DNA of 64,000 nucleotides, taken from assembly GCA_965222955.1 (NCBI GenBank), contig OZ244974.1, positions 2,077,940-2,141,939 of the forward strand, in the 5' to 3' direction. Made by a program: the position numbers and the translations under genes. Of the stretch, positions 6,062 to 63,177 are shown one piece after another; the stretch's first letter is position 1, and every line of letters begins with the position of its first letter. The DNA comes from Hyphomicrobiales bacterium. GTDB lineage: Bacteria > Pseudomonadota > Alphaproteobacteria > Rhizobiales > CBDCVD01. The notes under the pieces were generated by a model. That model had not been told where the DNA came from. It was given only the letters and a program-made list of their open reading frames with translations, and made no database searches.

Positions 6062-6233
6062 CTAGAGCATGTCAGGTCTTAATAGAAGCAATTCTGTTTC
6101 TCGATTGGCGAGGCGGACCACGCCCAAGGCGATCGAAGAGCGATGTTTATCCATCTCTCGAGAGCGGCTTGGGCGTGGGCGTCCGCCAATCGAGAAACGA
6201 AAATTGCTTCACTTAAAAACTGAAAGGCTCTAA
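6062..6233. mobile_element. A-type palindromic element, 172-bp form
   Basis: ctagagcatgtcaggtcttaatagaagcaatt...aattgcttcacttaaaaactgaaaggctcta. The roughly 80-bp arms are inverted repeats around ctctcgagag. By-eye alignment to the copy at 39758..39931 shows close similarity. The right terminus supplies the TAG stop of the S49 peptidase gene. Confidence 0.85.
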
Positions 6234-7108
6234 AGACCGAAGCGGGCCCACAGAGCGCGCTCGTGCAAGGCCGTCATAACCTCTCCGGTCATTTCTCGCG
6301 CCACAGGCGCGCGCGCCGCCGCACCGGTGAAGCGGCCGAGAAACGAGCGCGACGGGCTGACATCCCTGATCTTGACCTTGTCACCATATTTTTCCCGCAT
6401 CACATCGCGCAAAACGCCCAGCCGGTCAACCAGACCGAACTCCATGCCGCGCCGTGCGGTCCAGAAGGCGCCGGAAAAAAGCGTTTCCTCATCGGCCTTC
6501 AGAGCCGCTCCGCGGCATTGGCGTACATGTTCGCAAAAATCGGTGTAGATATCGCCTTGCAGCGCCATCAAATGATTTACGTCCTCCGGCTTTTGTGGTG
6601 AAAACGGATCGAGCATCGCTTTTTTATCCCCCGTGTGGTGCAGGCGGCGCTCGATGCCGATCTTGTCGATCAGTGCCTCAAAGCCAAAGCCCGCATGGAC
6701 CACGCCGATAGAACCGACGATAGAAGCGGGATCGGCGATGATCTCATCGCCAGCGCAGGCAATCCAGTAGCCGCCCGAGGCGGCGACATCCTCGACAAAC
6801 ACATACACCCGCTTGTCATGCTCCCTGGCCAGTGCGCGAATACGGCGAAAGATCAGATTCGATTGTACCGGCGATCCGCCCGGCGAATTGATCGACAGGG
6901 CCACCGCCCTGGCGCGCATTTTAAAGGCCTTTTCCAAGGCGCCCGCCACCGCCTTTAGGTTCAGTGCGCTGCGCATGGCGCTGCGCTCGGCAATCACCCC
7001 TGACAAGCGCACATGCGCGATAACGGCCCGGCGATCGCGCCATAGTTTGGGCTGGTGTTTGCCCCACATGCGTGAAACGTTCCTGAGCGACGATTTCAGT
7101 TCTACCAT
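6230..7108 (-). CDS. S49 family peptidase (SppA/SohB-like)
   Basis: 292 aa; motifs SINSPGGSPV and DVAASGGYWIACAGDEIIADPASIVGSIGV, typical of S49 signal-peptide-peptidase-like proteins. Confidence 0.85.
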   Translation of the reverse strand: MVELKSSLRNVSRMWGKHQPKLWRDRRAVIAHVRLSGVIAERSAMRSALNLKAVAGALEKAFKMRARAVALSINSPGGSPVQSNLIFRRIRALAREHDKRVYVFVEDVAASGGYWIACAGDEIIADPASIVGSIGVVHAGFGFEALIDKIGIERRLHHTGDKKAMLDPFSPQKPEDVNHLMALQGDIYTDFCEHVRQCRGAALKADEETLFSGAFWTARRGMEFGLVDRLGVLRDVMREKYGDKVKIRDVSPSRSFLGRFTGAAARAPVAREMTGEVMTALHERALWARFGL

Positions 7109-7179
7109 GGTATTCCTGTTCTTCAGTTCAGAGCCATTTGCATTGGTAACAGCCGTCGGCCGCAGGCCGACAACGCCTT

Positions 7180-7283
7180 AATACCAGAGGGTTTTGCGTT
7201 TTGACTCCTGGCTCAGATTAAAACTGTTGTCTTATCAGCACGATACACAAGCCAGCGCGTACAAAAAGCCAATACCGCTGGTA
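7180..7283. mobile_element. B-type element (about 105 bp)
   Basis: ataccagagggttttgcgttttgactcc...cgtacaaaaagccaataccgctggta. Same family as 11679.., 14877.., 15014.., 18565.., 46086.. and 59631.. Confidence 0.8.
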
Positions 7284-7549
7284 CAATACCGCAAGGCGTT
7301 ATTACTTTGTTCAATTTGTTTGCGGCTTTTCTTCAACCGCATTTAGCCAATACATCCGTAGCGCACTCGCTAAAATTGATACCACGCCCGCATATTCCCG
7401 CAGAATTTGTTTTCGTGAGTCGAATCTCCTCTCCATGTTTGAACAGATCCTTAAAAACGGCAAGACCAATTAAGTAAATTGTAAGCGTATTTCTTTTTCT
7501 AACCTCAATTTATCTATGGGACATTTGCCTTCCAGACAGGGATGGGTAA

Positions 7550-8194
7550 ATGAAAAACCGCATACACATTGCTTTCGTCTCGATACTTGTCATGTCAAGC
7601 GCGATATCGATGGCGAAATCCGAATTCGCAAACGCGCCAAACCCGGTCACGCCGGCGTTTATGACCATCACGCGGGCAACAAGCGCGCCCCTTGGATACC
7701 TGCAATTTTGCCAGGTAAACCCGGGAGATTGCAGCAGCGCGGGCAACAGCGATATGCAAGGCGTTCCCGCCACCCTGTCGCCTTCGCGCTGGCGGCAACT
7801 TGTTACCATAAACAATCACGTCAACCGCAATATCAAGCCTGTCACCGACTATGATCTGTACAGGATCTCGGAGAAATGGACCTATCCGGTTGCCGAGGGA
7901 GACTGCGAAGACTATGTATTGTTGAAACGCCGCATGCTGATGGCGCAGGGTTGGCCGGAAAACACCCTGCTGATCACCGTCGTGCTGGATCAAAACGACG
8001 AAGGTCATGCGGTTTTAACGGCACGCACCGATCAGGGCGATCTTATCCTCGACAATCAGTTCGACGCCATACTGCCCTGGCAACACACACCATACTACTA
8101 TGTCAAGCGGCAATCCTATGACAATCCGCAAAACTGGGTAGCCATTCACGACAACAGGCGTCGCCTCGCAGCGCTCGCCGAACGCACGCCGTAA
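7550..8194 (+). CDS. Transglutaminase-like cysteine peptidase (BTLCP, peptidase C93)
   Basis: 214 aa with a signal peptide; GDCEDYVLLKRRML (Cys), DEGHAVL (His) and LILDN (Asp) fit the BTLCP catalytic triad context; AGGGA precedes the ATG. Confidence 0.8.
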   Translation: MKNRIHIAFVSILVMSSAISMAKSEFANAPNPVTPAFMTITRATSAPLGYLQFCQVNPGDCSSAGNSDMQGVPATLSPSRWRQLVTINNHVNRNIKPVTDYDLYRISEKWTYPVAEGDCEDYVLLKRRMLMAQGWPENTLLITVVLDQNDEGHAVLTARTDQGDLILDNQFDAILPWQHTPYYYVKRQSYDNPQNWVAIHDNRRRLAALAERTP

Positions 8195-8338
8195 GCGCGT
8201 AACCATTGCCTGACAGCGGGCAATTTCAAGGAACACACGAGAAAGGCCCGGTCCCGTCCCCCACCTCCTCCCTCCCCCGCAAGGGATCCGGGTCTGGGAG
8301 CCGGTCCGATACATCGGATCGGCTCCACTTCCCTGCCC

Positions 8339-9346
8339 CTACCGGCGCTGCACACAAGCCCGTCGCTCCCAGGAAAATCCCAGCAGATTCCACGATTGCA
8401 CCATATGAGCCGGCAATGGGGCGGTAACGTCCAACAAACCGCCGCCGGGGTGAGGGATGACCAGATTTCGTGCATGAAGATGCAAACGGTTCTGCAAGCC
8501 CCCCGGCAAGCTCCAGTTTTCCATGTTGAAATACTTGTGGTCCCCGACAATGGGATGTCCCATATGGGCCGCATGTACGCGCAACTGGTGGGTGCGCCCG
8601 CTTTTCGGCATCAGCGCCAGCCAGCTTAAGCGGCTCCCGAGTCGCTCGATCACTTCATAGCGGCTCAACGCGTGCTGGGCGCCCACCTCGCCGTGTTGTA
8701 CGACGCGTATGGTCTCGGCCATAGGCGCACCGCGTTTGGCGAGATGCGTACTGATTTTCCCCCTGGGCGGTCGCGGCACGCCAGCGACAAGCGCCCAATA
8801 GGTCTTGGAGACCTCCTGGGTTTTGAAGGCGCGCGCTAGTTTCGATGCCGCGGCGCGGTTACGCGCAACAACCAACACACCGGCCGTGTCCTTGTCCAGC
8901 CGGTGTACAAGACGCGGGCGCGGGCAAGCGCCATCGCACAGACTGCGCAGCAGGCCGTCCACGTGGCGGGCAATACCGGAGCCGCCCTGCACCGCCAGTC
9001 CGGCCGGCTTGTTGAACACGAAAAGATCTGCGTCCTCATAAAGCAGCATGGAGTCCAGCAGGGTTCTGTTTTCATCCGTTTTCCGGTCTGGTATTGCCGG
9101 TATTTCCGGTACGGCGTCCCTTAGGGGCGGAATGCGCACTTCCTGGCCGGTGTGCAGGCGCGCGCCCGCCTTGACCCGCTTGCCATCAACACGTACCTGG
9201 CCGGTGCGCAGCAGCTTTTGCAAACGGCTATGGGGAAGCGCCGGACAGGTATGTTTAAACCAGCGATCGACACGCAGCCCGTCTTCATCGGGCGCGACCC
9301 GCAGCTTGCGCACACCGCTCACGGGGCCAGTCCGCGAATAATCCAC
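8339..9346 (-). CDS. RluA/RluC-family 23S rRNA pseudouridine synthase
   Basis: S4-like N-terminus plus catalytic HRLDKDTAGVLVVARN motif. The start is a GTG at 9346; an alternative GTG at 9322 forms a GTGA overlap with the crcB stop. Confidence 0.88.
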   Translation of the reverse strand: MDYSRTGPVSGVRKLRVAPDEDGLRVDRWFKHTCPALPHSRLQKLLRTGQVRVDGKRVKAGARLHTGQEVRIPPLRDAVPEIPAIPDRKTDENRTLLDSMLLYEDADLFVFNKPAGLAVQGGSGIARHVDGLLRSLCDGACPRPRLVHRLDKDTAGVLVVARNRAAASKLARAFKTQEVSKTYWALVAGVPRPPRGKISTHLAKRGAPMAETIRVVQHGEVGAQHALSRYEVIERLGSRLSWLALMPKSGRTHQLRVHAAHMGHPIVGDHKYFNMENWSLPGGLQNRLHLHARNLVIPHPGGGLLDVTAPLPAHMVQSWNLLGFSWERRACVQRR

Positions 9347-11784: not shown

Positions 11785-11964
11785 TGATTTTTCAACAGGT
11801 TGTTCCTGATAAACCCATCAGGTACAGGCGGCCATTCACCTGATCACTAGAGCGTGTCAGGTAAATGGCCCGGTATGGCCTTGCGGCTCGCCATCCGCGG
11901 CAAGGGCCGCAAGAGAGGTAACGTCAGATTTGCCCGTCCCGGGAACAACCTGTTACAATTATAC
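11785..11964. mobile_element. E-type element carrying an about 40-bp insertion with an A-type terminus
   Basis: Ends tttttcaacaggttgttcc / gggaacaacctgttacaattatac. Relative to the copy at 38537.. it has the extra segment tacaggcggccattcacctgatcactagagcgtgtcagg. Ends 2 nt from the rarA TAG stop. Confidence 0.75.
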
Positions 11965-11966
11965 AG

Positions 11967-13328
11967 CTATGGGTTCGTCTTTTGCGTTCGCCCGCTAACG
12001 TGACCTTCAGCATCAGCGTTTTGCCTGGCGCGCATTTCGCTCCATCGATCGATGCGCGCCTTCAACACCTCTTCAAATCCGCGTCCGTCCGGTTCGTAAA
12101 AAGTCTGGCGCGCCATTTGCGGCGGGAAATAGTTCTGGCCGGAAAACACCTCCGCGGTGTCGTGATCGTAGACATACCCTGCCCCGTACCCCTGCTTTTT
12201 CATCAACTGCGTCGGCGCGCCAAGGATGTGCTTGGGCGGCATGAGCGAGCCGTGCTCCTTGGCCGCCTTCATGGCGGCGCCATAGGCACGATAGGCGGCA
12301 TTCGATTTCGGCGCGCTGGCAAGATAGAGCACCGCCTGAGCAAGCGCCAGTTCGCCCTCGGGGGAGCCCAGCATATTATAGGCATCGCGGGCCGCATTGG
12401 CCTGTACAAGCGCCTGCGGATCGGCCAGACCAATATCCTCGATAGCCATGCGGATCAGGCGGCGCGCCAGATACATGGGGTCCTCGCCGCCATCAAGCAT
12501 GCGGGCGAAATAGTACAGGGCAGCATCGACATCGGAGCCGCGCACCGATTTATGCAGCGCCGAGATCAGGTTATAATGGCCATCGCCCGATTTGTCATAA
12601 ACGGGCGCGCGCCGCTGTACCAGGTCCTGTACGGCGACGGCATCCAGCAGCGGCGTCGACCGATCCGATGGAGAGGCGCGCCATATGTCCTCGGCCAAAT
12701 TCAGAACAGCACGGCCATCGCCGTTTGCCATGCGCATTAAAGCGCCCCGCGCCTCGTCATCGATCGGCAGGGGGCTGCCCTGGTGCCGCTCTGCCATGGC
12801 GAGCAGGCGCGCCAGGGCGGTATCGTCGAGGGGCTTGAACACCATTACCTGGGCGCGCGACAGCAGGGCGGCATTCAATTCAAACGACGGATTTTCTGTC
12901 GTCGCGCCCACAATGGTGACGGTTCCGTCCTCCATGACGGGCAGAAAACTGTCTTGCTGGGCACGATTGAAGCGGTGAATCTCGTCGATGAAAAGCAGCG
13001 TACCGGTGCCGGTCTGGCGGCGCGCACGCGCCTGTTCGAACAGTTTCTTTAGCGCGGCAACGCCGGTAAAAATCGCCGAAATCTGCTGAAAATGCAGCTT
13101 TGTTTCATTGGCAAGAAGGCGCGCAACACTCGTCTTTCCCGTGCCGGGCGGTCCCCAAAAGATAAGAGAGCCGATATTGCCCGCACGCAGCATTCGCTGC
13201 AACGCTCCCTGGCTGTCCGTCAGGTGCGCCTGGCCGACAACATCCGACAAGGCGGCAGGACGCAACCGATCAGCCAGGGGGCGCGGCGCGGCGCGATCCA
13301 GACCGGCGGCATCAAACAGATTGCTCAC
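11967..13328 (-). CDS. rarA: Replication-associated recombination protein A (AAA ATPase)
   Basis: 453 aa; Walker A FWGPPGTGKTS; LFIDEIHRFN; MgsA C-terminal region. GTG start preceded by GAGGA. Confidence 0.93.
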   Translation of the reverse strand: MSNLFDAAGLDRAAPRPLADRLRPAALSDVVGQAHLTDSQGALQRMLRAGNIGSLIFWGPPGTGKTSVARLLANETKLHFQQISAIFTGVAALKKLFEQARARRQTGTGTLLFIDEIHRFNRAQQDSFLPVMEDGTVTIVGATTENPSFELNAALLSRAQVMVFKPLDDTALARLLAMAERHQGSPLPIDDEARGALMRMANGDGRAVLNLAEDIWRASPSDRSTPLLDAVAVQDLVQRRAPVYDKSGDGHYNLISALHKSVRGSDVDAALYYFARMLDGGEDPMYLARRLIRMAIEDIGLADPQALVQANAARDAYNMLGSPEGELALAQAVLYLASAPKSNAAYRAYGAAMKAAKEHGSLMPPKHILGAPTQLMKKQGYGAGYVYDHDTAEVFSGQNYFPPQMARQTFYEPDGRGFEEVLKARIDRWSEMRARQNADAEGHVSGRTQKTNP

Positions 13329-14876: not shown

Positions 14877-15119
14877 ATACCAGCGGTATTGGCTTTTTGT
14901 ACACGCTGACAAGTGTATCGTGCTGACAAGACAACGGTTTTGATCCGGGCCAGGAGTCAAACGCAAGGCCCTTTGGTATTACACGATTGAACTACCCGCT
15001 CCTGTAGAGCGTGTAATACCAAGGGGCTTCGCGTTTGACTCCTGGCCCGGATCAAAACCGTTGTCTTATCAGCACGATACACTTATCAGCGTGTACAAAA
15101 CGCCAATACCGCTGGTATA
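14877..15119. repeat. Two B-type elements head to head (about 240-bp palindrome)
   Basis: 14877..14981 and 15014..15119 are reverse complements of each other, separated by about 30 nt that include gtagagcgtgt (an A-type terminus remnant). Confidence 0.85.
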
Positions 15120-15228
15120 ACTTCAACAGGTTGTTCTCGAAAAACCCATCGGGTGCTGCTGGCGGCAAGGGCGAAAAAGGTATCACTTCCGGTTTGCCTG
15201 TCGCAGGAACAAACTGTTGAACGATCAC
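15120..15228. mobile_element. E-type element, short variant
   Basis: cttcaacaggttgttctc...caggaacaaactgttgaacgatcac. The terminal gatcac contains the lipB TGA stop (15225..15227). Confidence 0.7.
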
Positions 15229-15953
15229 ACCTGGGGCGTTGCAAAGACGGTGCCGAATTCGCGGCGCAAAACCGCATCAACTTGCGCCATGGAAACCGTA
15301 ACGCCCAGATCGGCAAGGCTGGTCACACCGTGCCCCTCAATGCCGCACGGAACAATGCCCGCGTAATGGGAAAGATCGGGATCAATATTCAGGCTGACGC
15401 CGTGCCAGGTTATCCATCGGCTGACACGCACGCCGATGGCGCCGATCTTGCATTCGGCCGGCGCGCAGGACCCTGCCCGACCCGATGGACGCCTCACCCA
15501 CACGCCGATACGATCGGTGCGGCGCTCGCCGCGAATACCGAAGGCCGCCAGGGTGGCGATGAGCCACTCCTCCAGACGCCAGACAAAGGCGCGAATATCG
15601 CGGCCACGACAGCGCAGATCGAGCATGACATAGACAACCCGCTGGCCGGGACCGTGATAGGTGTATTTCCCGCCGCGCCCGGCCTGAAAGACGGGAAAAC
15701 GATCCGGATGGCGCAATTCATCGGCCCCGGCGCTGGTACCGGCGGTGTAAAGGGGAGGATGCTGCAACAGCCAGATCTGCTCGCCAGCCTGGCCGTTCGC
15801 AATCTGCCCGATGCGCGCGCGCATCGTGTCCAGGGCCTGCGGGTAGTCTGTCAGACCTGGCGATACCGTCCACTCAGGCGGCGGGAGCAAGGCAGCGGCG
15901 GGGAGTTGTTGCGGCGGGGAGTTGTCGATGTCAATCGGGGAGGTGTCGTTCAT
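15225..15953 (-). CDS. lipB: Lipoyl(octanoyl) transferase
   Basis: 242 aa; LipB motifs ([54 protein letters not shown]). Confidence 0.93.
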
Positions 15954-17558: not shown

Positions 17559-17680
17559 AAATGAAAACCTCTTGTCTTCGCTTCATCGAAGGTATTTGTT
17601 GCCTCGCAAACCGACTGTAATACTTCTCCGCCCCTTTTTGGATTTCGCCGCCCCCCAATGAGAGAAGCCCCGAAAGGCGT

Positions 17681-17738
17681 CATTCCGGGCCATTCACCTG
17701 CACCTATGGGTTTCGTAAGAATACCGTTGAGGTTACAC
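17681..17738. repeat. E-type half element
   Basis: cattccgggccattcacctgcacctatgggtttcgtaagaataccgttgaggttacac resembles the right half of E copies. Confidence 0.55.
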
Positions 17739-17747
17739 ATCCGGGGC

Positions 17748-18104
17748 CTAGAGCGTGTCAGGTCTTAATAGAAGCAATTTTCGTTTCTCGATTGGCGAGG
17801 CGATACCCAGGCTCAAGGCGATCGAAGAGCGATGGCGACCCATCTCTCGAGAGCGGCCTGGGCGTGGGCGTCCGCCAATCGGCAAAGCCGAAGGGACGGG
17901 CGCTTTTGCACCAATATGAACCTTAAGTCTCTTGAAAACAGCCCCACTATATCCTGCGAGACTTAAGGTTCATATTAGATCAGCTTGGCGTTAGCTGTAC
18001 CCATTTTGCCAAGGGTAATGCTAACGCCATAAAGCTGATCGCCCTGAAATCTATAGCAAAATCGCTCCGTCAGAATGATTCTATTAAGACCTGACACGCT
18101 CTAG
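17748..18104. mobile_element. A-type composite element, 357-bp form (arms plus hairpin module H1 plus nested F module)
   Basis: Perfect 24-bp TIR ctagagcgtgtcaggtcttaatag / ctattaagacctgacacgctctag. H1 hairpin at about 17914..17975 (18-bp stem atatgaaccttaagtctc). F module at about 17976..18055. The right terminus overlaps the rpsK TAG stop. Confidence 0.9.
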
Positions 18105-18545: not shown

Positions 18546-18770
18546 CTAGAGCGTGTCATGTCTTATACCAGCGGTATAACCGTTTTGCACACGCTGACTT
18601 GTGTGTCGTGCTGATAAAACAGCGGTTGTAAACCGGGTCAAGAGTCAAACGCAAAGCCCGCTGGTATTAATAGAACCATTCTGACCGGCAAAACTGACGT
18701 TCCACCTCTTACGGCCGTGACCGCAGATTGCCGCAACAAGGTCATACCGGGCCATTCATGGGCCCCGACA
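18546..18770. mobile_element. A-type terminus interrupted by a nested B-type element, followed by E-like sequence
   Basis: ctagagcgtgtcatgtctta | taccagcggtat...(B, 18565..18668)...ctggtat | taatagaaccattctgac, i.e. B inserted inside the A-type TIR. Confidence 0.75.
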
Positions 18771-18939
18771 CAAGATCAAAACACCTCTACCTCGCTTAAA
18801 TCTTCGCTTGAGACTTTAACGTGGCATTGTCACAGATTGGTTTCAGTTAAGTGCAAAACACTGTAGTGGAACCTTGAATTCGACGTTTGGGAACACGCCC
18901 GGCGGCAAACAGGACTCAAATGTCATATTCAGGGTTCCA

Positions 18940-19009
18940 CCAGAGCGTGTCAGGTCTTAACAGAAGCAATTTTCGTTTCTCGATTGGCGAGGCGATACCC
19001 ACGCTCTAG
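18940..19009. mobile_element. A-type element, internally deleted 70-bp form
   Basis: ccagagcgtgtcaggtcttaacagaagcaattttcgtttctcgattggcgaggcgatacccacgctctag. The right terminus overlaps the rpsM TAG stop. Confidence 0.8.
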
Positions 19010-29443: not shown

Positions 29444-29536
29444 GGCATTTCTTTCCGCAACATCTGTTGTCGATGTCTCTTATCCTGTCGTTCCGGCTTT
29501 ATGACCGCTGTATTGCTCTGTGGAGCCTGTCATGTC

Positions 29537-29842
29537 CTATAAGCCCGTGGTGATATCGATCGACTCGCCCGGCGCGAGGGTTACAATGGCCTTCTTGATC
29601 GCTTTCTGCCGCCCGAAGCGACCACGAAATCCTTTCAGTTTCCCTTTTCGTATCAAAGTGTTCACCGCCGTCACCTTGACCGAGAACAACGTCTCCACAG
29701 CCCCCTTGATCGCCGGCTTGCTGGCGCCGATGGCGACATTGAAAACTACCTGATTGGCCTCAGATGCCAGCGTCGACTTCTCGGTAATCACCGGCGAGAG
29801 TATGATGTCGTAGGCATCCGCCCTACCCGATATATGCTTCAT
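29537..29842 (-). CDS. rplW: 50S ribosomal protein L23
   Basis: 101 aa; position between rplD and rplB and L23-like sequence ([28 protein letters not shown]). Confidence 0.95.
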
Positions 29843-31247: not shown

Positions 31248-31298
31248 GGCTTATTCCTTCATTACTCGCAGCCCACGTGTTCCGTGGCCCGGCTAGTT

Positions 31299-31436
31299 GT
31301 GATCTTTAAGCAGGTGTATCCAGGACCGGCAAACCTGAAGTGATCTTTTTGCGGCCTTTGCCACCACAAAGACCATACCGGGCCATCCATCTGCACCCGA
31401 TCAGTTTACCACGAACCACCTGTTGCAATGACACCG
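31299..31436. mobile_element. E-type element between rpsJ and rplC
   Basis: gtgatctttaagcaggtgtatcc...cacgaaccacctgttgcaatgacaccg. CTAG occurs on both flanks (31293 and the rpsJ stop at 31437). Confidence 0.7.
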
Positions 31437-31745
31437 CTAGAGCTTGATCTCCACATCGACACCGGCGGCAAGATCGAGTTTCATCAACGCATCGACCGTC
31501 TGCGGCGTTGGATCCACGATATCCAAAAGGCGCTTATGGGTGCGAATTTCGAATTGCTCGCGACTTTTCTTGTCCACGTGCGGCGAGCGGTTTACGGTGA
31601 ATTTCTCGATACGCGTCGGCAGCGGAATGGGACCGCGAACCTGCGCCCCCGTACGCTTTGCCGTCGAGACAATCTCGCGCGTCGACGTATCCAGAACACG
31701 ATGATCAAAGGCCTTTAAACGAATGCGTATGTTTTGACGATCCAT
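31437..31745 (-). CDS. rpsJ: 30S ribosomal protein S10
   Basis: 102 aa; [14 protein letters not shown]...[22 protein letters not shown]. Confidence 0.97.
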
Positions 31746-31800: not shown

Positions 31801-32649
31801 TCAGGCATCACCGGCGTGTTGAAACTGCGTGACTTTCCACTTCCGTAATATCCGATAGGGAGGCATTTGATCATCGGCGCCGCTGTGGGAGCCGCGAAAG
31901 AAAATGCCGAACTGGTCTGTGGCGCGGCAATAAATGCTTCCCGAGAGTTCCTCGGTCGCTGGCGCGCAACGCTCCAGCGCTTGCGTGTGCGAATACAACT
32001 TGTCCAGAGTCTGGCCGATACGCTCACCCTGAACGCCCCTGACACGGGCGCTGGAAGAGATGATGGCGTTCACCCTACCGCCTTTGTAGCGCAGATTCCT
32101 GTACGTGTTCGTTTTCGCCTCGACGCCATCGTGAAGCACCCCATCGGCGCTAAACCGGGCGCGGAAAACTTCTTCATCCCCATCAAGAAAACGCAGTACA
32201 GGAAAGACGCCCGATTCGGTGCTTTGCCAGGCGGAGACCATTTTTAACGGCGCAAACGCCTTTTGCAATGTGTCCCGGTCGCGCCAGCGCGTCCCCAGAA
32301 CAAGCGGCCCGAGGCCTTCGTAGCCAAAGCGATAACGCTCTTCGGGGCGTATCGAAGCGGCGCCCGTAACCAGTGTCGACGTGGCATCTGTCTGCGTAAC
32401 CGGGCCAGCCGCGGCGATTGTGCCGACCTCTTGCGTATCCTGGGCATTCTGCTGCGCCGATCCTGCGGACAGTGCGGCAATATCATCGCTATCGGCCGGT
32501 ATATCCGAAGAGGCGGCGATACGCCCGCCTGGTGCGCCCGTATCAAGGCAGGCAGCGAGCACCATTGAGGCGCTCAATACCACCAGAGCGGGCAGTATCC
32601 TGCTTGTCCAGTTGGCCTTTGTTACGGGCAATAAGGTCTCGGGGGTCAT
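31801..32649 (-). CDS. Hypothetical lipoprotein
   Basis: 282 aa from the ATG at 32649 (the ORF track starts at a TTG at 32670). Hydrophobic leader ends in lipobox LAAC, followed by a low-complexity linker. No family recognised. Confidence 0.55.
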   Translation of the reverse strand: MTPETLLPVTKANWTSRILPALVVLSASMVLAACLDTGAPGGRIAASSDIPADSDDIAALSAGSAQQNAQDTQEVGTIAAAGPVTQTDATSTLVTGAASIRPEERYRFGYEGLGPLVLGTRWRDRDTLQKAFAPLKMVSAWQSTESGVFPVLRFLDGDEEVFRARFSADGVLHDGVEAKTNTYRNLRYKGGRVNAIISSSARVRGVQGERIGQTLDKLYSHTQALERCAPATEELSGSIYCRATDQFGIFFRGSHSGADDQMPPYRILRKWKVTQFQHAGDA

Positions 32650-32731
32650 AACGTAATGTTTTCCTCTCAACTGGCGCTAGAGCGTGCTTGTTTGCCAGTG
32701 GAACGTTATCACAGCTGGTGGTTCCTTGATC

Positions 32732-38003: not shown

Positions 38004-38534
38004 ATGCCTGTTGATCCAAACCACAACGACAATGCAACTGCAACACCACCGCGCTCGCGGGCGCGCCTGTCTGTGGCGGCCATCGCCGGAGGCGTGGCAG
38101 CGCTGGTCGGCGGCCTGGCGATCAGTCTGTTTTTGCTGACTTCGCCCCTTGCGGCGGGCACCTACTTTGCGCCCGACGGGGTGGCAATCGGCGGTTATGA
38201 TCCGGTCGCCTATTTCACGGCGCGCAAGCCTGTTGCCGGTACGTCACAGTACGCGCACAAATGGCGCGATACGACGTGGCATTTTGCCAATGATGAAAAC
38301 CGCGCCGCATTCGTTGCCAACCCGCAACGTTACGCACCCCGATACGGCGGCTATTGTGCCTATGCGGCGGCGAAAAACTATGTCTATCGCACGGACCCCA
38401 ACGCCTGGTCGATCGTGGACGGCAAACTCTACCTCAACGCCTCCCTGGGCGTTCGCAAAACCTGGAGTGGCGACATTCCCGGCAATATTGCCGCCGCCGA
38501 CAAAAACTGGCCAGAACTGGAAAAAGGGCTGTAG
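38004..38534 (+). CDS. YHS domain-containing protein
   Basis: 176 aa with an N-terminal anchor, then GYDPVAYF...WHFANDENRAAFVANPQRYAPRYGGYCAYA, typical of the YHS-domain family. GAGG precedes the ATG. Confidence 0.75.
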   Translation: MPVDPNHNDNATATPPRSRARLSVAAIAGGVAALVGGLAISLFLLTSPLAAGTYFAPDGVAIGGYDPVAYFTARKPVAGTSQYAHKWRDTTWHFANDENRAAFVANPQRYAPRYGGYCAYAAAKNYVYRTDPNAWSIVDGKLYLNASLGVRKTWSGDIPGNIAAADKNWPELEKGL

Positions 38535-38536
38535 GT

Positions 38537-38681
38537 GGATAACGTCAACAGGTTGTCCTCAAAAAAGCAATGATCAGGTAAATGACCCGGTATGGCCTTG
38601 CGGCTCGCCATCTGCGGCAAGGGCCGCAAGAGGGATAACGTCAGATTTGCCCGTTTTGGGAACAACCTGCTGAAAGGTCAC
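38537..38681. mobile_element. E-type element, full-length reference copy
   Basis: caacaggttgtcc...ggcccggtatggccttgcggctcgccatctgcggcaagggccgcaagag...gggaacaacctgctgaaaggtcac. Confidence 0.8.
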
Positions 38682-38711
38682 ATCCAGGCGCACGCGTTCG
38701 CCGCAAGCGGC

Positions 38712-39757: not shown

Positions 39758-39931
39758 TTAGAGCGTGTCAGGTCTTAAGTGAAGCAATTTTCGTTTCCCG
39801 ATTGGCGAGGCGATACCCAGGCTCAAGGCGTTCGAAGAGCGATGGCGACCCATCTCTCGAGAGCGGCCTGGGCGTGGGCGCCCGCCAATCGGGAAACAGA
39901 ATTGCTTCACTTAAGAACTTAAAGGCTCTAG
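39758..39931. mobile_element. A-type palindromic element, 174-bp form, between the M24 peptidase gene and dppB-like gene
   Basis: ttagagcgtgtcaggtcttaagtgaagcaatt...aattgcttcacttaagaacttaaaggctctag. The right terminus overlaps the TAG stop of the peptidase gene. Confidence 0.85.
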
Positions 39932-41117: not shown

Positions 41118-41179
41118 GCTAGAGCGTGTCAGTTTTTAACTGAAGCAATTCTGTTTCTGTTAAGACCTGACACGCTCCA
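41118..41179. mobile_element. A-type element, minimal 62-bp form
   Basis: ctagagcgtgtcagtttttaactgaagcaattctgtttctgttaagacctgacacgctccag. Confidence 0.8.
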
Positions 41180-41257
41180 GGGAGCAGGCGAGGCAAGTAC
41201 TGTAACCAACGCCCGCGCCCGGTCCTATACAGCGACTGTCGCAACCATCCTGTTCGC

Positions 41258-43010: not shown

Positions 43011-43137
43011 TGAGATCTTCCAGCGGGTAGTTTTTCAAGGCGGCAGGTCCAACGTTCCCCCCTCTTGCGGCCGTGGCCGCGAGAAGGCCGGTTCGGGCCG
43101 TCCATCTGATAGTCCAGAGCGTGTCCTGTCTTAATAG
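43011..43137. repeat. E-like half element followed by a solo A-type terminus
   Basis: gagatcttccagcgggtag...ggccgtccatctgatag, then ccagagcgtgtcctgtcttaatag (43114..43137). The ispB TAA stop (43131..43133) lies inside this terminus. Confidence 0.65.
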
Positions 43138-44147: not shown

Positions 44148-44368
44148 TGCGGCTCCCGCCTGTTGTTTGCTGTACCGGTCAATTTGCGGCACTATAGTTT
44201 ATTGCCCGTTGTACGCAAGGCACAAAACACATCCCGGATGACACCGGCGTCAGGACGGGCTATGTTTGCGCTGTAGCGATCACGGCAAGCACCCGTGAAA
44301 CCGTCTGATCGCCGCCCCTGGCAAGAACCTGCTGAAAGATCACAGCCAGAACGTGTCATGATAACGTT

Positions 44369-44596
44369 ATGATAACATTGCTGCGTACAACCGATAATCT
44401 TACCATTAACTTCGTGCGCATGGTGCTCGAACAGGCAGGTATCGGCGTATTCGTCGCCGATACGGCAATCAGTGCGATGGAGGGAGGGATTGGCGCCTTT
44501 CCCTTGCGCTTGATGGTGCACGACGACGATGCCGCAGCGGCACGGCGCATTGTCGCCCAGGCCGGCTACGGCCACGAACTGATAGCCGACACCTGA
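44369..44596 (+). CDS. DUF2007-like small protein
   Basis: 75 aa; the pattern (N-terminal L..T.N......V...LE..GI, C-terminal ARRIL-like helix) recalls DUF2007; divergent from ispB. Confidence 0.55.
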   Translation: MITLLRTTDNLTINFVRMVLEQAGIGVFVADTAISAMEGGIGAFPLRLMVHDDDAAAARRIVAQAGYGHELIADT

Positions 44597-44629
44597 GTAC
44601 GATCTTGCAGCACGCTGCGCCTGGAACGG

Positions 44630-44746
44630 ACAAAGACGGACAAACCTGAAGGTACATCTCTTGCGTCCTTGCCGTCAGCAGGGCCGGCTCGGGCCATTCA
44701 TCTGCACCCGGTGGCGTTTTCGGGAACAACCTGTTGCAATTGCACA
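44630..44746. repeat. E-type partial element
   Basis: caaacctgaaggtacatctcttgcg...gggccattcatctgcaccc...cgggaacaacctgttgcaattgcac. Confidence 0.65.
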
Positions 44747-44781
44747 CCCAAGCCACGTACTGCCAAATTTGTGGGGCGATC

Positions 44782-45177
44782 ATGCTGCGTCTGGTCTGGA
44801 TCGGTGGAGGCATTACGGCGCTGGCCATCGGTGTGCTCGGCATTTTCCTGCCGCTCCTGCCAACCACGCCGTTTTTGCTGCTGGCGGCGTTTTGTTTCTC
44901 GCGCGGCTCGCGGCGTCTGCACAACTGGTTGCTAAACCACAAACTGCTCGGCCCGCCCATTCGCGACTGGAACCGCTGGGGCGCCATCGCGCCCGGCGCC
45001 AAGGCCGGCGCCATGATCGCCCTGATCGCGATTATCGCGCTAAGCCTGTTCGCCGGCGTCTCGCGCCTGGTCCTTGCTGTACAGATTGTGGTGCTCGCCG
45101 GCGTGGCGGCCTTTATTCTCAGCCGCCCCGCGCCGCCGAAAGACGCGCCCCGTGCCAGGCAAAATGATCGCTCATGA
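44782..45177 (+). CDS. ybaN: YbaN family inner membrane protein (DUF454)
   Basis: 131 aa from the ATG at MLRLVWIGGG; GIFLPLLPTTPFLLLAAFCFSRGSRRLHNWLL is the DUF454 signature. Confidence 0.85.
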   Translation: MLRLVWIGGGITALAIGVLGIFLPLLPTTPFLLLAAFCFSRGSRRLHNWLLNHKLLGPPIRDWNRWGAIAPGAKAGAMIALIAIIALSLFAGVSRLVLAVQIVVLAGVAAFILSRPAPPKDAPRARQNDRS

Positions 45178-45970
45178 ACGTCGCAATGAAATAATACGAG
45201 TGATCATACCCCTCGCGCATATTGAGTTGCAGGGTGATCCCCGCTTCTTTACAGGCGCGTTGCAGGCGTTTTGGCTGCAACTGTTCGTCAAGAAACGGAT
45301 CGGCGCTTCCCTGATCCACCAGAATATCTGTCACCCGCGCCCCGTCCTCGACAAGCGCGCACGCATCATAGGCCCGCCAGGAGCGCCTGTCGGCGCCCAG
45401 ATAATGGCCCAGCGCCTTTTGCCCCCAAGGAACCTCCATAGGCGCCACAATGGGTGCAAAGGCCGATACCGATCTGTAAATATGGGAGTTTTTCAGGGCG
45501 ATGGTAAGCGCCCCGTGGCCGCCCATGGAGTGCCCGCACAACCCTTGACGCGCCATATCGGCGGGGAAATTCTCGCCAATCAAGCCGGGCAGTTCCCCGG
45601 TAATATAGGAATACATGCGGTAATGGCGGGCGTAGGGCTCTTGCGTCGCGTCCAGGTAAAAACCGGCCCCCAAGCCGAAATCATAGGCCCCCTGGGGATC
45701 ATCGGGCACCTCATCGCCGCGCGGGCTGGTATCGGGCAAAACCGCCATGATACCGTGTTCGGTGCAGCAGCGCTGAATGCCGGCCTTTTCCATCGCATTG
45801 GCGTGGGTGCAGGTAAGGCCGGAAAGGTATGTTAGCACCGGTACCGGACCGTGATGCGCCTGGGGTGGCACAAAGACAGCAAATGTCATGGTTCCGCCGG
45901 TCTGGCTGGCGATGTGACGGTAAACACCTTGTACGCCGTCAAACGATTTCTGCTCTGATACGATTTCCAT
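45119..45970 (-). CDS. fghA: S-formylglutathione hydrolase / esterase D
   Basis: 283 aa from the ATG at MEIVSEQKSFDG; YLSGLTCT and GHSMGGHGAL motifs. The upstream ORF extension lies in a repeat. Confidence 0.92.
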   Translation of the reverse strand: MEIVSEQKSFDGVQGVYRHIASQTGGTMTFAVFVPPQAHHGPVPVLTYLSGLTCTHANAMEKAGIQRCCTEHGIMAVLPDTSPRGDEVPDDPQGAYDFGLGAGFYLDATQEPYARHYRMYSYITGELPGLIGENFPADMARQGLCGHSMGGHGALTIALKNSHIYRSVSAFAPIVAPMEVPWGQKALGHYLGADRRSWRAYDACALVEDGARVTDILVDQGSADPFLDEQLQPKRLQRACKEAGITLQLNMREGYDHSYYFIATFMSDHFAWHGARLSAARGG

Positions 45971-45993
45971 GTTTACTCTTTCCTGTCTGATCT

Positions 45994-46599
45994 GTTGAAT
46001 GTGAAAAAGTCCCTCGGCTTCGCCTCGGTCTACTTTTCCCAATAAAATAAGGACAAATCAGTCCCTGGAGCGGCCCGGCGAACTGATACCAGCGGTATTG
46101 GCCTTTTGTACGCGCTGACTTGTGTATCGTGCTGATAAGACAACGGTTGTAAACCAGGTCAGGAGTCAAACGCAAAGCCCCTGGTTGTGATCTTTCAGCA
46201 GGTTGTTCCCGGGACAGGCAAACCGGACGTGACACCGCTTAACACTCTTGCCGCCAGAAAGGCCATACCGGGCCATTCATCTGATCATCGCTTTTTTTCG
46301 ATTTCTCCAGCGCTGTCAAGGGTTTAGGAACCGCTGAAAGCGGCGCGAAGCGCCCTTGACAGCGCTGGAGAAATCGAACACCTCCAATGATCAGATGGAT
46401 GGCCAGCAGCACCCGACGGGGATTTCGAGAACAACCTGCTGACAGGCCACACCCGGGCTTTACGCGCAAATGCGCCAAAACCTTGCAATAAGCCCAAGCG
46501 GAAACAAAGCGCCGCGCCTTCTCGGTCTCAGTTTTCTCATTGTTTTAAATGAAGAAAAGTCCACACAAGCGGAGCAAAGGACTTTTCTTCACGATCAAC
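45994..46599. mobile_element. Long-TIR element (reverse orientation) with nested B, E and G elements
   Basis: gttgaatgtgaaaaagtccctcggcttcgcctcgg...(B 46086..46185)(E 46187..46450 containing G 46281..46393)...acttttcttcacgatcaac. Confidence 0.8.
46281..46393. repeat. G-type palindrome with perfect 25-bp arms
   Basis: tcgatttctccagcgctgtcaaggg (46298..46322) and cccttgacagcgctggagaaatcga (46353..46377), with a 30-nt spacer holding small inner hairpins. Flanked by ctgatcat / atgatcag of the host E element. Confidence 0.85.
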
Positions 46600-54817: not shown

Positions 54818-55174
54818 CTAGAGCGTGTCAGGTCTTAATAGAACCATTCTGACGGAGCGATTTTGCGACAAGATGAACTTTAAGTCTCGCAGGATATCGT
54901 GGGGCTATTTGCAAGAGACTTAAGGTTCCTATTAGATCAGCCTGGCTTTAGCTGTACCCGTTTTGCCAGGGGTAAAGCTAACGCCATAAAGCAGATCGCC
55001 CTGAAATCCATAGCAAAAGCGCCCGTCCCTTCGGGTTTGCCGATTGGCGGACGCCCACGCTCAAACCGATCTCATGAGATGGGTCGCCATCGCTCTTTGA
55101 TCGCCTTGAGCCCGGGTATCGCCTCGCCAATCGAGAAACGAGAATTGCTTCTATTAAGACCTGACACGCTCTAG
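54818..55174. mobile_element. A-type composite element, 357-bp form, inverted relative to 17748..18104, between tatB and tatC
   Basis: Same perfect 24-bp TIRs. The arms are about 90 percent or more identical by eye to the reverse complement of 17748..18104. F module at about 54933..55012. The right terminus overlaps the tatB TAG stop. Confidence 0.9.
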
Positions 55175-60262: not shown

Positions 60263-60265
60263 CTA

Positions 60266-60368: not shown

Positions 60369-62366
60369 ATGAACCCGCCAGCATTTTCGCACCTGTTTTC
60401 GCCTATCACCGTCGGCCACAAGACGCTTAAACATCGGCTCAATATGGGCGCCCATACGGCCAATATGTCACAGGCACGGCTGCCGTCGGCGCGCCACAAG
60501 GGCTACTATCTGGAACGCGCCATGGGCGGTGCCGCCATGATTGTGGTGGAGCCGGTACCGGTGCACCGCTCTGGAGTGTTCAAACGCGGCTGCTTTCTCG
60601 CCGAAAGCGATGCCATCATTGAGCCCTTTCGCGATATTGTCGATGCCTGTCACGCGTACCAGACCGTGATGGTGCAGCAACTGCTGCATATCGGCGCCCA
60701 TGGCGATTACGACAATTCCTATCACGCGAACTGGTCGCCGTCGGGCTTTGCCTCCTATCACGATTCGGACGGCAGCCACGGGATGAGCGGCGCCCAGATT
60801 GAGGAAGTCATCGACGCGTTTGTCGCCGCCGCCCTACGGGCCCAACAGGCGCATTTTGACGGCGTGGAGATTTTCGCCGCCTATAACGCCCTGGTGGACC
60901 AGTTCTGGTCGCCTCTGACCAATACCCGCAACGACGAATGGGGCGGCGATTTTACCCGGCGGATGCGCTTTAGCGCCGAAATCCTGACGCGCATCCGCAA
61001 GGCTTGCGGCGATCGCTTTATTATCGGACTTGCGGTTACCGGCGATGATCTGGTACCGGGAAGCCTCGACAATGCCGCAATTGCCGCAATCGCCGGCTGG
61101 CACGACAGCCGCCGGCTGATGGACTACATCAGCGTCGGAACGGGAAGTTATTTTGATTTCTCACGGCTTATACCCACCTTTCAGCATGCCGACAAACTTG
61201 GCGCCTCCCTGGCCGCTGGCGTCAAGGCGGCGGTGATGCATGCCCGCGTTCAGGCCGAGAGCCATATTCGCACGCCGGAAAATGCCGACTATGTTATTGC
61301 CTCGGGCGATGCGGATATGGTCTCGATCGTGCGCGGCCAGATCGCCGACCCACATATGGCGAACAAGGCGCAAGACGGGCGCGTGGAGGATATTCGCCCG
61401 TGCATATCCTGCAATCAGATGTGCTGGGGACGGCGCGGACGCGACTATTACATTTCGTGTCTGGTGAACCCTTCGGCAGGGCACGAGTTTCAATGGGGCG
61501 GCGACCGGTTTCATCCCATGGAGAACCCGCGCAAGGTTCTGGTTGTCGGCGGTGGCCCGGCGGGCCTTGAGGCGGCACGGGTGGCGGCCGAGCGCGGCGC
61601 GCGCGTGACCCTTGCCGAGGCCTCCGATAAACTGGGGGGCCAGTTTCGTCTCGCCGGCCTGCAGCCGCGACGGGGACAAATTCTCGATCTTGTCGGCTGG
61701 TACGAAGCGCAGTTGCGAAACCTGCAAGTCAATGTCCTGTATAACGCGCCCATGGACGCCGACGATGTGATCGGTTTTAAGGCCGATGCGGTGGTGCTTG
61801 CCACGGGATCGCTTCCCGCCGATACCGGTTTTCAGCGCGCCCTGGCCCATGTGCCGCGTCTTGCGGGCCTGGAGCGCGGCAACTGGGCCTCCGTTGAGGA
61901 CATTATCGGCGGCGCCAAACGCGCTGGCGAACACGTCCTCCTGATCGATGACGGGGGCAACTGGCGCGGCGGCGGAACGGCGTGGTACATGGCGGAGCGG
62001 GGCCATCGGGTCACCCTCGTTACCCCCGATGCCATGGCCGCCAGGGAATTGCAGCGAAGCGCCGCAGACTTTGCTCTGCACAAAACCTTCAAGCACCTTG
62101 GTGTTGAGACCATCGTTCATTCGGCTATCGGCGAGTGGCATGGCGATGGCGCAACATTGATCAATATTCTTGACAACAGCACCCGCGATATCGCCGCCGA
62201 TACGCTGGTTCTGGCGACGCCGAACGTCTCGGTGCGCTGGCTCGGTGATGCCCTTGATGCCTGGCACGGCAGGGCGCCGCAAATGTTCCAGATCGGCGAT
62301 GGTGTGGCGCCGCGCGGCGCACCGGCCGCCATTTATGAAGGGCGCACAACCGCCCTGGCACTGTAA
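60369..62366 (+). CDS. Old-Yellow-Enzyme-type NADH:flavin oxidoreductase fused to an FAD/NAD(P)-binding domain (2,4-dienoyl-CoA reductase-like)
   Basis: 665 aa; N-terminal OYE TIM-barrel pattern, 4Fe-4S Cys cluster CISCNQMCWG...CLVNP, then Rossmann motif VLVVGGGPAGLEAA. Confidence 0.85.
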   Translation: MNPPAFSHLFSPITVGHKTLKHRLNMGAHTANMSQARLPSARHKGYYLERAMGGAAMIVVEPVPVHRSGVFKRGCFLAESDAIIEPFRDIVDACHAYQTVMVQQLLHIGAHGDYDNSYHANWSPSGFASYHDSDGSHGMSGAQIEEVIDAFVAAALRAQQAHFDGVEIFAAYNALVDQFWSPLTNTRNDEWGGDFTRRMRFSAEILTRIRKACGDRFIIGLAVTGDDLVPGSLDNAAIAAIAGWHDSRRLMDYISVGTGSYFDFSRLIPTFQHADKLGASLAAGVKAAVMHARVQAESHIRTPENADYVIASGDADMVSIVRGQIADPHMANKAQDGRVEDIRPCISCNQMCWGRRGRDYYISCLVNPSAGHEFQWGGDRFHPMENPRKVLVVGGGPAGLEAARVAAERGARVTLAEASDKLGGQFRLAGLQPRRGQILDLVGWYEAQLRNLQVNVLYNAPMDADDVIGFKADAVVLATGSLPADTGFQRALAHVPRLAGLERGNWASVEDIIGGAKRAGEHVLLIDDGGNWRGGGTAWYMAERGHRVTLVTPDAMAARELQRSAADFALHKTFKHLGVETIVHSAIGEWHGDGATLINILDNSTRDIAADTLVLATPNVSVRWLGDALDAWHGRAPQMFQIGDGVAPRGAPAAIYEGRTTALAL

Positions 62367-62419
62367 CACCAGCGGCGCTTGTATCGCAGGATACGCACCA
62401 CAATTAGCTGAATGTGAAC

Positions 62420-62440
62420 AAGACGTTTAACACGCTCTAG
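62420..62440. repeat. A-type terminus remnant overlapping a permease stop codon
   Basis: aagacgtttaacacgctctag; the terminal cta is the TAG stop of CDS 62437..63117. Confidence 0.55.
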
Positions 62441-63117
62441 CGAAGCACCATCATCGCGTCCGAATCTTCGGCGCCGAGCCTGGTCTGCACGATACGGGTC
62501 AGCCGCAAAAATACGGTCGATATCAGCCAGTACAGCAGGGCAATCGTCGCAAAGGTCTCTACCGGGGTGAACGTGCGCCCGTTGATGTCATGGGCGGCAT
62601 AGGTCAGTTCGGCCACGGTAATCATCGATAGCAGCGACGATTCCTTGATCATCGTCAAGGCGATATTGGTGCCGGGCGGAAAGACATAGCGATACAACTG
62701 GGGAAAAATGACCCGGCGCATATAAAATCCGTACTTCAAGCCGAGCGCCTCACAGGCATCGAACTGACCCCTGGGAACCGATTCAACACCGCCGCGAAAG
62801 ATCTCGGCAAAATACGCCCCGCCATAGATAGACAGGCAGAAAAAGCCCGTCGTCAGTCCCGCCAGACGAATACCGTAAAAGGGTAGCGCATAAAATACCA
62901 TGAATATCAGGATCAACAACGGTACATTGCGGACGATTTCAATATACGCGATCGCACTCCAGCGCAGAAACCGCCTGGTGGAAATGCGCATCAGACAAAC
63001 GAAGACGCCGATAAAAATCCCGATGGGAATGGAAACCGCGGATATCAGCAATGTATTGCCGATACCGCTGAAAAGAATATCGCGATTGCTCCATATCGCC
63101 ATGTAGTCAAAGTTCAT
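62437..63117 (-). CDS. Amino acid ABC transporter permease (His/Glu/Gln/Arg/opine 3-TM family)
   Basis: 226 aa; N-terminal region typical of the family and EAA-like loop (GQFDACEALGL). Confidence 0.88.
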   Translation of the reverse strand: MNFDYMAIWSNRDILFSGIGNTLLISAVSIPIGIFIGVFVCLMRISTRRFLRWSAIAYIEIVRNVPLLILIFMVFYALPFYGIRLAGLTTGFFCLSIYGGAYFAEIFRGGVESVPRGQFDACEALGLKYGFYMRRVIFPQLYRYVFPPGTNIALTMIKESSLLSMITVAELTYAAHDINGRTFTPVETFATIALLYWLISTVFLRLTRIVQTRLGAEDSDAMMVLR

Positions 63118-63143
63118 CGGTCGTTGTCCTGGATGTGCAATGT

Positions 63144-63177
63144 CAGAATGGTTCTACTAAAACATGGCACCCTCTAG
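63144..63177. repeat. Degenerate A-type right arm overlapping a permease stop codon
   Basis: cagaatggttctactaaaacatggcaccctctag versus cagaatgattctattaagacctgacacgctctag at 18071..18104; the terminal cta is the TAG stop of CDS 63174..63836. Confidence 0.6.

Follow-up and report, generated by a model that had tools for sequence, protein, structure and literature searches.

Short palindromic repeats ending on TAG stop codons in two Hyphomicrobiales genomes: probable miniature transposable elements with a preference for TA within CTAG

The 64,000-nucleotide (nt) stretch of DNA analysed here, called the window below (58% G+C; contig OZ244974.1 of an uncultured Hyphomicrobiales bacterium), holds the alphaproteobacterial ribosomal protein cluster from rpsL to rplQ on its minus strand, together with neighbouring genes. 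It also carries copies of two families of short repeats, the A-type (~172 bp, 172-174 bp in complete copies, a near-perfect palindrome) and the E-type (~145 bp), whose ends coincide to the nucleotide with the stop codons of adjacent genes. Both are very probably non-autonomous transposable elements of the miniature inverted-repeat kind (MITEs) that insert at TA, with a preference for C-TA-G, and rebuild the stops into which they insert. The coincidence with stop codons is clear and is, mechanistically, an ordinary case of transposon target choice. In the DNA sampled, the repeats sit on about a fifth of TAG stops and on nearly half of those preceded by C, ribosomal protein operons included.

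A gene call self-trained on codon usage gave 70 genes in the window, 22 of which end in TAG, and in 10 of these 22 the stop is the outermost TAG of a repeat terminus (seven A-type and three E-type; Table 1). Eight of these sites (6230, 18101, 19006, 39928, 55171, 62437, 63174 and 31437) had been pointed out in the initial annotation, and the sequence read at each bears them out. The same holds for the degenerate state of the two permease termini (62437, a ~21-nt remnant, and 63174, a 34-nt solo end) and for the ispB TAA (43131) and lipB TGA (15225), which lie inside termini. Its tally of 8 elements on about 21 TAG-ending coding sequences was too low, and its list lacked two E-type ends (11967 and 38534) and the solo A-type unit found at the stop of rplW (29537). 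With up to 3 mismatches allowed, the window contains 13 copies of the A-type terminus, CTAGAGCGTGTCAGGTCTTAA, where 0 are expected by chance. Random placement in non-coding DNA predicts ~0.08 exact coincidences with a stop, against the 7 observed (P ~3e-12).

A second sample came from a sister genome, the metagenome-assembled genome "Hyphomicrobiales bacterium" OZ245032.1 (3,496,944 bp; the window's own genome has 3,393,886 bp). SecY and EF-G are each 91% identical between the two genomes, and SecY of the next relatives is at most 75% identical. All 29 loci obtained in a pattern scan of genome contigs belong to this sister genome (232 kb), and they form an independent sample because none of the 29 matches the window over more than 600 bp. 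Window and sister loci together amount to 296 kb. A metagenome scan with SecY returned only distant relatives (at most 73% identity), usable for C-termini, not for empty sites. No record was identical in sequence to S11, S12 or S10 of the window or to transposase P0002 of the window's genome, and a search of viral contigs with the terminus pattern found no copy. A-type termini were scored with a position weight matrix (PWM), for which shuffled sequence gave 0 matches at a score of 8 or more; 91 were found in the 296 kb, 74 of them in the sister loci. The tabulation of terminus-to-stop distances proposed in the initial annotation yields a single spike: 12 of the 91 termini lie at offset +1, with a stop exactly on the terminus TAG (0.13 expected, P ~4e-20), and every other offset within 60 nt on either side has at most 2. 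Nine of the 74 termini in the sister loci are on a stop, compared with 0.085 expected.

In structure, both families resemble known MITEs. They have terminal inverted repeats, are small, lack coding capacity and occur in many copies; TA is duplicated at both ends as a target site, and orthologous sites are polymorphic for presence or absence between the two genomes. Profile searches (NCBIfam or Pfam) of 20 window open reading frames (ORFs) detected no transposase domain.

The initial annotation had taken the outermost 4 nt of the A-type terminal inverted repeat to be the palindrome CTAG. CTAG does stand at the junction, yet it is composite: the C is flanking DNA, the TA is a 2-bp target duplication, and the G alone belongs to the element, as its first base. 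Junction 4-mers were tabulated for 80 scored A-type termini, and the four bases before AGCGTGTC, read inward, are CTAG in 46, TTAG in 11, ATAG in 6, CCAG in 4 and CTGG in 3, with no CTAA, CTAC or CTAT, the fourth base being constant and the first variable. Complete A-type elements are flanked on the plus strand by CTAG...CTAG (11 cases), CTAG...CTAA (3) or ATAG...CTAT (1), and a 2-bp TA duplication around an element-borne G...C is favoured because it alone fits these pairs. The ends of E-type elements, read outward, likewise have a constant C, then TA (or decayed CA or TG), then a variable base. The base before TAG at the 63 xTAG termini is C in 46, T in 11, A in 6 and G in none. C precedes TA at 73% of these termini and at 9-12% of the TA sites of the window (P ~1e-29), whereas G, which precedes 27% of window TA sites, precedes no terminus. 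These figures fit a preferred target C-TA-G, with C-TA-A/T-TA-G and A-TA-T as minor targets and a preceding base that ranks C > T > A and is never G. The decayed junctions CCAG and CTGG represent the same T-to-C transition on either strand (7 of 80 A-type and ~6 of 19 E-type ends), with examples in the window at 15231-15234, 18940, 41177-41180 and 43114. A bias akin to very-short-patch repair might conceivably lie behind them.

Duplication of TA and choice of TA within CTAG are features of IS630/Tc1-mariner elements, the latter being a trait of IS630 itself and not of the whole family. By analogy, an IS630-type enzyme, which the initial annotation had suggested, would fit as an explanation of the TA duplication. 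When all ORFs of 80 or more amino acids in ~345 kb were searched by phmmer, with one protein of the IS630 family as query, no match was obtained, and the ends of the IS630 element on plasmid pKNA05 proved to be unrelated. Identical 4-bp YTAR repeats at both ends, as left by IS5, are not seen, and the non-CTAG cases are discordant as 4-mers.

The transposase that does occur near the repeats belongs to an insertion sequence (IS) of another family. The sister genome contains a 1.47-kb IS, shared by four loci at 98-99.7% identity and present in at least five copies, some of them truncated, besides one diverged end (L008 4742-6212; L003, L025, L028 and L112). Its transposase (437-459 amino acids) scores 317.8 bits with the NCBIfam IS1182 profile NF033551, above the cut-off of 270, and matches Pfam DDE_Tnp_1, DUF772 and DDE_Tnp_1_6; the window's genome encodes a transposase 88% identical to it. 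It is possible, though unlikely, that this IS moves the repeats with a 4-bp YTAR/CTAG duplication, in which case the MITE would be AGCGTG...CACGCT between CTAG repeats. In favour of this, the IS is found in both genomes, CTAG stands next to each of the 9 ends that could be observed in five copies, and 5 of these ends adjoin a terminus of the repeats. The IS ends read CAGTGTGTCGG(A/G)TTT at both sides and the A-type end reads GAGCGTGTCAGGTCTTAA; the terminal 9-mers, CAGTGTGTC of the IS and GAGCGTGTC of the repeats, are in register and share 7 of their 9 bases. L001 has a hybrid terminus, CTAG-CAGTGTGTCAGGTCTTAT. The left end of the L008 copy, AGCGTGTCGG, is also hybrid and resembles the terminus of the repeats; this copy is placed on a TAG stop, that of a transaldolase-like gene.

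Relatives of this IS in Acetobacteraceae (plasmids of Komagataeibacter and Acetobacter) have 52% protein identity and nearly the same ends, CAGCCTGTCGGGTTGGG. Among 15 distinct sites, 10 are CTAG/CTAG and the others include the direct repeats CTAA/CTAA and TTAG/TTAG; junctions with CTAA immediately before the IS and with TTAG immediately after it are both seen. These sites indicate a duplication of 4-bp YTAR, as in IS5, because the base next to the end varies and all four bases would therefore belong to the target. The IS had been the favoured mobiliser and was downgraded on the strength of these junctions: if the Hyphomicrobiales IS duplicates 4 bp like its relatives, it does not explain elements that duplicate TA. 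A 4-bp duplication further predicts CTAA to be as frequent as TTAG at the ends of the repeats, where the counts are 11 for TTAG, 6 for ATAG and 0 for CTAA, and it predicts identical flanks, where the complete non-CTAG elements have CTAG/CTAA or ATAG/CTAT. Beyond ~12 nt the repeats have no sequence in common with the IS ends, and they are for this reason not deletion derivatives of it.

A pair of inverted A-type termini at L023 1362-2791 (~20 nt each, flanked by CTAG, 1.43 kb apart) encloses an ECF sigma/anti-sigma gene pair. It was considered as an autonomous element and rejected, its content being the ECF sigma/anti-sigma genes and no transposase; it may be either a derivative that carries cargo or no more than a pair of solo ends.

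An insertion preference for C-TA-G is also visible in which stops are occupied. In the combined sample an A- or E-type terminus adjoins 18 of 79 TAG stops, 3 of 52 TAA stops and 1 of 97 TGA stops, and occupancy by either family reaches 13 of 28 for C-TAG stops compared with 5 of 51 for other TAG stops (Fisher P = 5e-4). Together with the xTAG junctions, the flank pairs and the empty sites of the sister genome described below, this supports the explanation offered in the initial annotation, namely a CTAG preference combined with duplication of TA. CTAG itself is depleted 3.6-fold in the window (23 observed, 84 expected), and of the 23 copies 16 are at element ends (7 of them also stops), 3 are intragenic, 2 are unoccupied stops (rplO and rplB) and 2 are elsewhere between genes. 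In the 296 kb, with only crude gene calls beyond the window, 14 stop-codon CTAGs have a repeat next to them and another 14 have none; intergenic CTAGs have no repeat in 25 cases, a repeat on one side in 27 and repeats on both sides in 23; and 9 of 67 intragenic CTAGs touch a repeat, at least 5 of these 9 being within or at the end of the IS1182-family IS. Repeats thus occupy roughly half of the harmless CTAGs, a pool to which stop codons contribute a large share. Use of TAG as a stop is unusually high, at 79 of 228 scored genes (35%), and among the 27 genes of the cluster from rplC to lipB it ends 9 in the window and 14 in the sister. Highly expressed genes normally favour TAA.

The position of the repeats at gene ends could also reflect a function of their transcripts, such as a stabilising or terminating hairpin or an RNase III site, with selection keeping copies next to stops. 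The complete A-type element at 6062..6233 is predicted to fold into a single hairpin of ~80 bp (-94.6 kcal/mol, z = -11), with the stop codon forming part of its base; elements lie between cistrons of ribosomal protein operons, where 3'-end structures could matter, and MITE hairpins of Neisseria and Yersinia affect neighbouring transcripts (reviewed in PMC2229807). A function of this kind, however, needs no register of a single nucleotide; a spike confined to one offset, and occupancy that varies with the base ahead of TAG, are traits of insertion sites. Away from stops, too, about half of the CTAGs between genes adjoin a repeat, and orthologous sites are empty in the sister genome, so that selection for such a function is an improbable reason for the pattern.

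The proteins encoded by the affected genes appear to be complete. Profiles of NCBIfam, for which C-terminal coverage was checked, confirmed the SppA-like S49 peptidase, S11, S13, the M24 peptidase, TatB, the two permeases, S10, IspB and LipB, and their C-termini reach the profile ends. S11 ends in RKRRRV and S10 in DVEIKL, in each case the ending seen most often in the distant orthologues (46 for S11 and 30 for S10). The truncated or altered C-termini for which the initial annotation had suggested looking were therefore not encountered in this comparison.

Intergenic spacers are too diverged between the two genomes for base-by-base alignment, and empty and filled sites were therefore compared at gene ends only. 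The rpsM stop reads acc TAG followed by the element in the window and aca TAG cccgac, empty and at the same stop position, in the sister; rpsJ reads ctc TAG followed by the E-type element in the window and ttg TAG, empty and at the same position, in the sister, where the rpsJ-rplC spacer is 38 nt. Both genes thus have C before TAG in the occupied window and A or G in the empty sister. Since the sister sites are empty with TAG at the same codon, comparison of the two genomes indicates that the stop position is native and that TAG is older than the insertion, at least for rpsM and rpsJ. The stop of the YHS-domain gene, TAG with an E-type element in the window, is an empty TGA at the same position in the sister, and at rplB an empty C-TAG in the window corresponds to an empty T-TAG. 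The rpsK stop carries a full composite element in the window and is TAA followed by a 15-bp solo unit in the sister, while rplW has TAG followed by a solo unit in the window and a ~170-bp element on T-TAG in the sister. The distal flanks of complete elements, which correspond to the third base of the native stop, give TAG for 6 occupied stops and TAA for 1, that of the M24 peptidase gene. Judged from this distal flank (TTAG), the M24 peptidase gene probably had a native C-TAA stop that the insertion turned into TAG.

The initial annotation had offered, as its alternative, that insertion takes place in 3' parts of genes, with replacement stops provided by the elements. That such insertions truncate or alter C-termini is very improbable, given that the family profiles of S11, S13, S10, the M24 peptidase, the permeases and IspB are covered through to their ends, that S11 and S10 end as in most distant orthologues, and that rpsM and rpsJ, free of an element in the sister, end there in TAG at the same codon, even though the terminus CTATTAAGACCTGACACGCTCTAG, read outward, offers TAA, TGA and TAG in the three frames and, read inward, closes 2 of 3 frames within 24 nt. 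Replacement stops are not needed for S11, S13 and S10, which have native ends, and the idea holds in the weak sense that the G of the element re-forms TAG, that the M24 peptidase stop was probably TAA before the insertion, and that a few genes end within element sequence. One of these is lipB, for which we infer from the sequence that decay of a CTAG turned TAG into CAG, followed by a two-codon read-through (CAG GTG TGA) to the TGA in the E-type terminus; the C-terminal tails of LipB differ between window and sister. Another is a 234-amino-acid gene of the sister genome (L027 960..1664), whose last 6 codons belong to a 65-bp mini-element and whose stop is a TAA in the terminus of that element, a genuine element-supplied stop.

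Solo units of 14-15 bp, which correspond to the last bases of the A-type inverted repeat, GACATGACACGCTC, and are bounded by TA...TA, directly follow four stops in one register: those of ispB and rplW in the window, and those of rpsK and lipB in the sister (L110 13206-13225 and 15711-15730). At rpsK and rplW a solo unit in one genome corresponds to a full element on the same stop in the other. This suggests that solo units arise by internal deletion from the duplicated TA to a TA inside the distal repeat.

Table 1. Repeat elements (putative MITEs and derivatives) of the window and the stop codons on which they lie
Element	Position	Gene and stop codon	Structure and junction
Complete A-type (putative MITE), 172 bp	6062..6233	SppA-like S49 peptidase gene 6230..7108, minus strand; stop 6230-6232	TA duplications 6063-6064 and 6231-6232; flanks CTAG/CTAA, target C-TA-A; degenerate A-type end at the stop; plus-strand CTAA is T-TAG on the gene strand
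E-type	11847..11970	MgsA/RarA gene 11967..13328; stop 11967-11969	Right terminus on the stop; A-TAG
E-type	15110..15234	lipB; stop TGA 15225-15227	Stop inside the terminus; junction CTGG (gene strand C-CAG)
Composite A-type, 357 bp	17748..18104	rpsK (S11); stop 18101-18103	Another repeat nested inside; both termini perfect
Internally deleted A-type, 70 bp	18940..19009	rpsM (S13); stop 19006-19008	Only CACGCTCTAG kept at the stop end
Solo A-type terminal unit	29520..29539	rplW; stop TAG 29537-29539	Directly after the stop; same register as at ispB
E-type (putative MITE), ~142 bp plus TA duplications	31293..31440	rpsJ (S10); stop 31437-31439	CTAG on both sides (31293 and 31437)
E-type	38532..38689	YHS-domain gene 38004..38534, plus strand; stop 38532-38534	Left terminus on the stop; G-TAG
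Complete A-type (putative MITE), 174 bp	39758..39931	M24 peptidase gene; stop 39928-39930	Right end degenerate; distal flank TTAG
Mini A-type, 62 bp	41119..41180	Not on a stop	Two termini back to back; minimal element structure
Solo A-type terminal unit	43114..43133	ispB; stop TAA 43131-43133	Outward orientation; directly after the stop; IspB of native length
Composite A-type, 357 bp	54818..55174	tatB; stop 55171-55173	Perfect termini; left end abuts an E-type terminus
A-type right-end remnant, ~21 nt	62420..62440	Amino-acid ABC permease gene 62437..63117; stop 62437-62439	AAGACGTTTAACACGCTCTAG
Degenerate solo A-type right end, 34 nt	63144..63177	Amino-acid ABC permease gene 63174..63836; stop 63174-63176	~27 of 34 nt match the consensus; PWM score 16.1

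Several points weigh against the interpretation of the repeats as TA-inserting MITEs. No transposition event has been observed, and in the ~345 kb examined no autonomous element combines full A-type ends with a transposase. The only transposase near the repeats is of the IS1182 family, whose relatives indicate a duplication of 4-bp YTAR and not of TA. A truncated terminus at L005, CTAA-AGCGTGTCAG, breaks the rule of the constant G. The comparison of CTAG occupancy between stops (50%) and other harmless sites (22-52%) is rough, resting on crude gene calls and depending on how distal ends are counted. The DNA examined, finally, represents ~10% of the sister and 2% of the genome to which the window belongs, and presence of the terminus was the criterion by which the sister loci were chosen.

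The junctions show that the elements integrate at a TA and duplicate the TA alone, with a strong preference for C-TA-G. As the element starts with G and ends with C, its junctions read xTAG or CTAy. On the preferred interpretation, insertions within genes would be purged by selection, and TAG stops after a codon ending in C would make up a major class of CTAG sites that tolerate insertion. When the TA of such a stop is hit, the protein would remain unchanged because TA and the G of the element re-form an in-frame TAG, and the copy would persist. Many MITEs would thus come to lie exactly on stops because of TA-in-CTAG targeting together with the rebuilding of TAG at the junction. Nested and tandem arrays would follow because every insertion creates two fresh CTAGs. 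Later decay would give rise to CCAG and CTGG junctions, internal deletions and, occasionally, read-through into the terminus.

If this is correct, a simple rule, in which TA is chosen within CTAG and a terminal G rebuilds TAG, would let mobile DNA saturate a compact genome with its genes unbroken. It would explain for annotation purposes why repeat ends and coding sequence ends coincide, and cautions against trimming or extending genes at such junctions. It also offers a testable link between depletion of a tetranucleotide, stop-codon usage and the spread of MITEs, and the two complete sister genomes allow insertion, decay and loss to be counted at orthologous stops.

A further proposal, which we regard as doubtful, is that stop-codon CTAGs serve as self-renewing safe harbours, where each insertion restores the stop and offers a fresh CTAG, giving arrays even in ribosomal protein operons, with feedback on the genome. 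In that case, conversion of TAA to TAG may add to the high usage of TAG (35% overall; 9-14 of 27 genes of the ribosomal cluster), and short C-terminal extensions may arise once CTAG decays to CCAG. The recurrent and precisely bounded 15-bp solo unit after stops may then point to an undescribed partial-excision or deletion reaction, and a CTAG-seeking IS1182-family enzyme might cross-mobilise the TA-duplicating MITEs.

The A- and E-type elements are accompanied by other repeats. A family containing GTCTTATACCAGCGGTAT has the A-type outer terminus in common, and further families fill most of the intergenic space of the window at 5900-6060, 17560-17750, 18546-18940 and 44300-46480. Within the 296 kb, ~27% of what lies beyond the confidently called genes is repeated sequence. 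The rplW-rplB spacer of the sister genome (L110 1697-1918) holds a short tandem array of cgattatggcgat units within an element bounded by TAGAGCGGGTC...ACGCTCTAG. Between tuf and rpsJ the window has a 289-amino-acid ORF with a DUF1131 match (31801-32670) and, just upstream of it, a terminus remnant, CTAGAGCGTG, at 32677; the corresponding spacer of the sister is 366 nt long, with 0 called genes.

In IS870 of Agrobacterium vitis, the TAG of the CTAG target forms the stop of the element's own ORF, whereas in the present genomes it serves a host gene and not a transposase. TnRErm46/ISRe46 of Rhodococcus equi (IS481 family) targets CTAG, and the TAG of its duplicated target is described as the source of the stop in genes that it enters, parB among them, whose function is therefore left intact (PMC6794481). 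That system is an autonomous element of the 6.9-kb class with a 6-bp NCTAGN duplication, an IS481-type transposase and a handful of insertions, in contrast to the MITE families described here, with their 2-bp duplication and chromosome-wide distribution. Elements of the IS630 family duplicate TA (PMC2170065), and IS630 of Shigella sonnei prefers TA in 5'-CTAG-3', as stated in a passage of the same article that cites Tenzen and Ohtsubo (1991). For MITEs such as RUP of Streptococcus pneumoniae, a transposase of the IS630 family is presumed to act in trans as the mobiliser (PMC2229807). Duplication of TA is common to the present repeats and the IS630/Tc1-mariner group (IS630, ISY100 and RUP), but a density of 10 in 22 TAG stops within 64 kb, ribosomal protein operons included, is unusual.

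The IS5 family includes IS5 itself and the pair MITEPsy1/ISPsy2, with CTAG or YTAA/YTAR as target and a MITE derived from or moved by the IS (PMC3189936); it differs in its 4-bp duplication, which the junctions of the present repeats do not fit. ISPsy36 of the IS1182 family targets a palindromic tetranucleotide, GGCC (PMC8027508). A link of the repeats with the IS1182 family (ISPsy36, IS1272 and the Acetobacteraceae IS) is suggested by similar ends and a common target, but the length of the duplication appears to be different. The Correia/NEMIS and ERIC repeats are small, palindromic, TA-flanked MITEs that are intergenic, are co-transcribed with their neighbours and form long hairpins (PMC2229807); in the relevant part of that review they are not described as preferring CTAG or as lying systematically on stops. 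Our literature search found no report tying the IS1182 family to CTAG and none of MITEs that lie systematically on stop codons. The kind of mechanism is known from these systems; what is new is its scale and its vehicle, at least two families of probable MITEs in two uncultured Hyphomicrobiales genomes.

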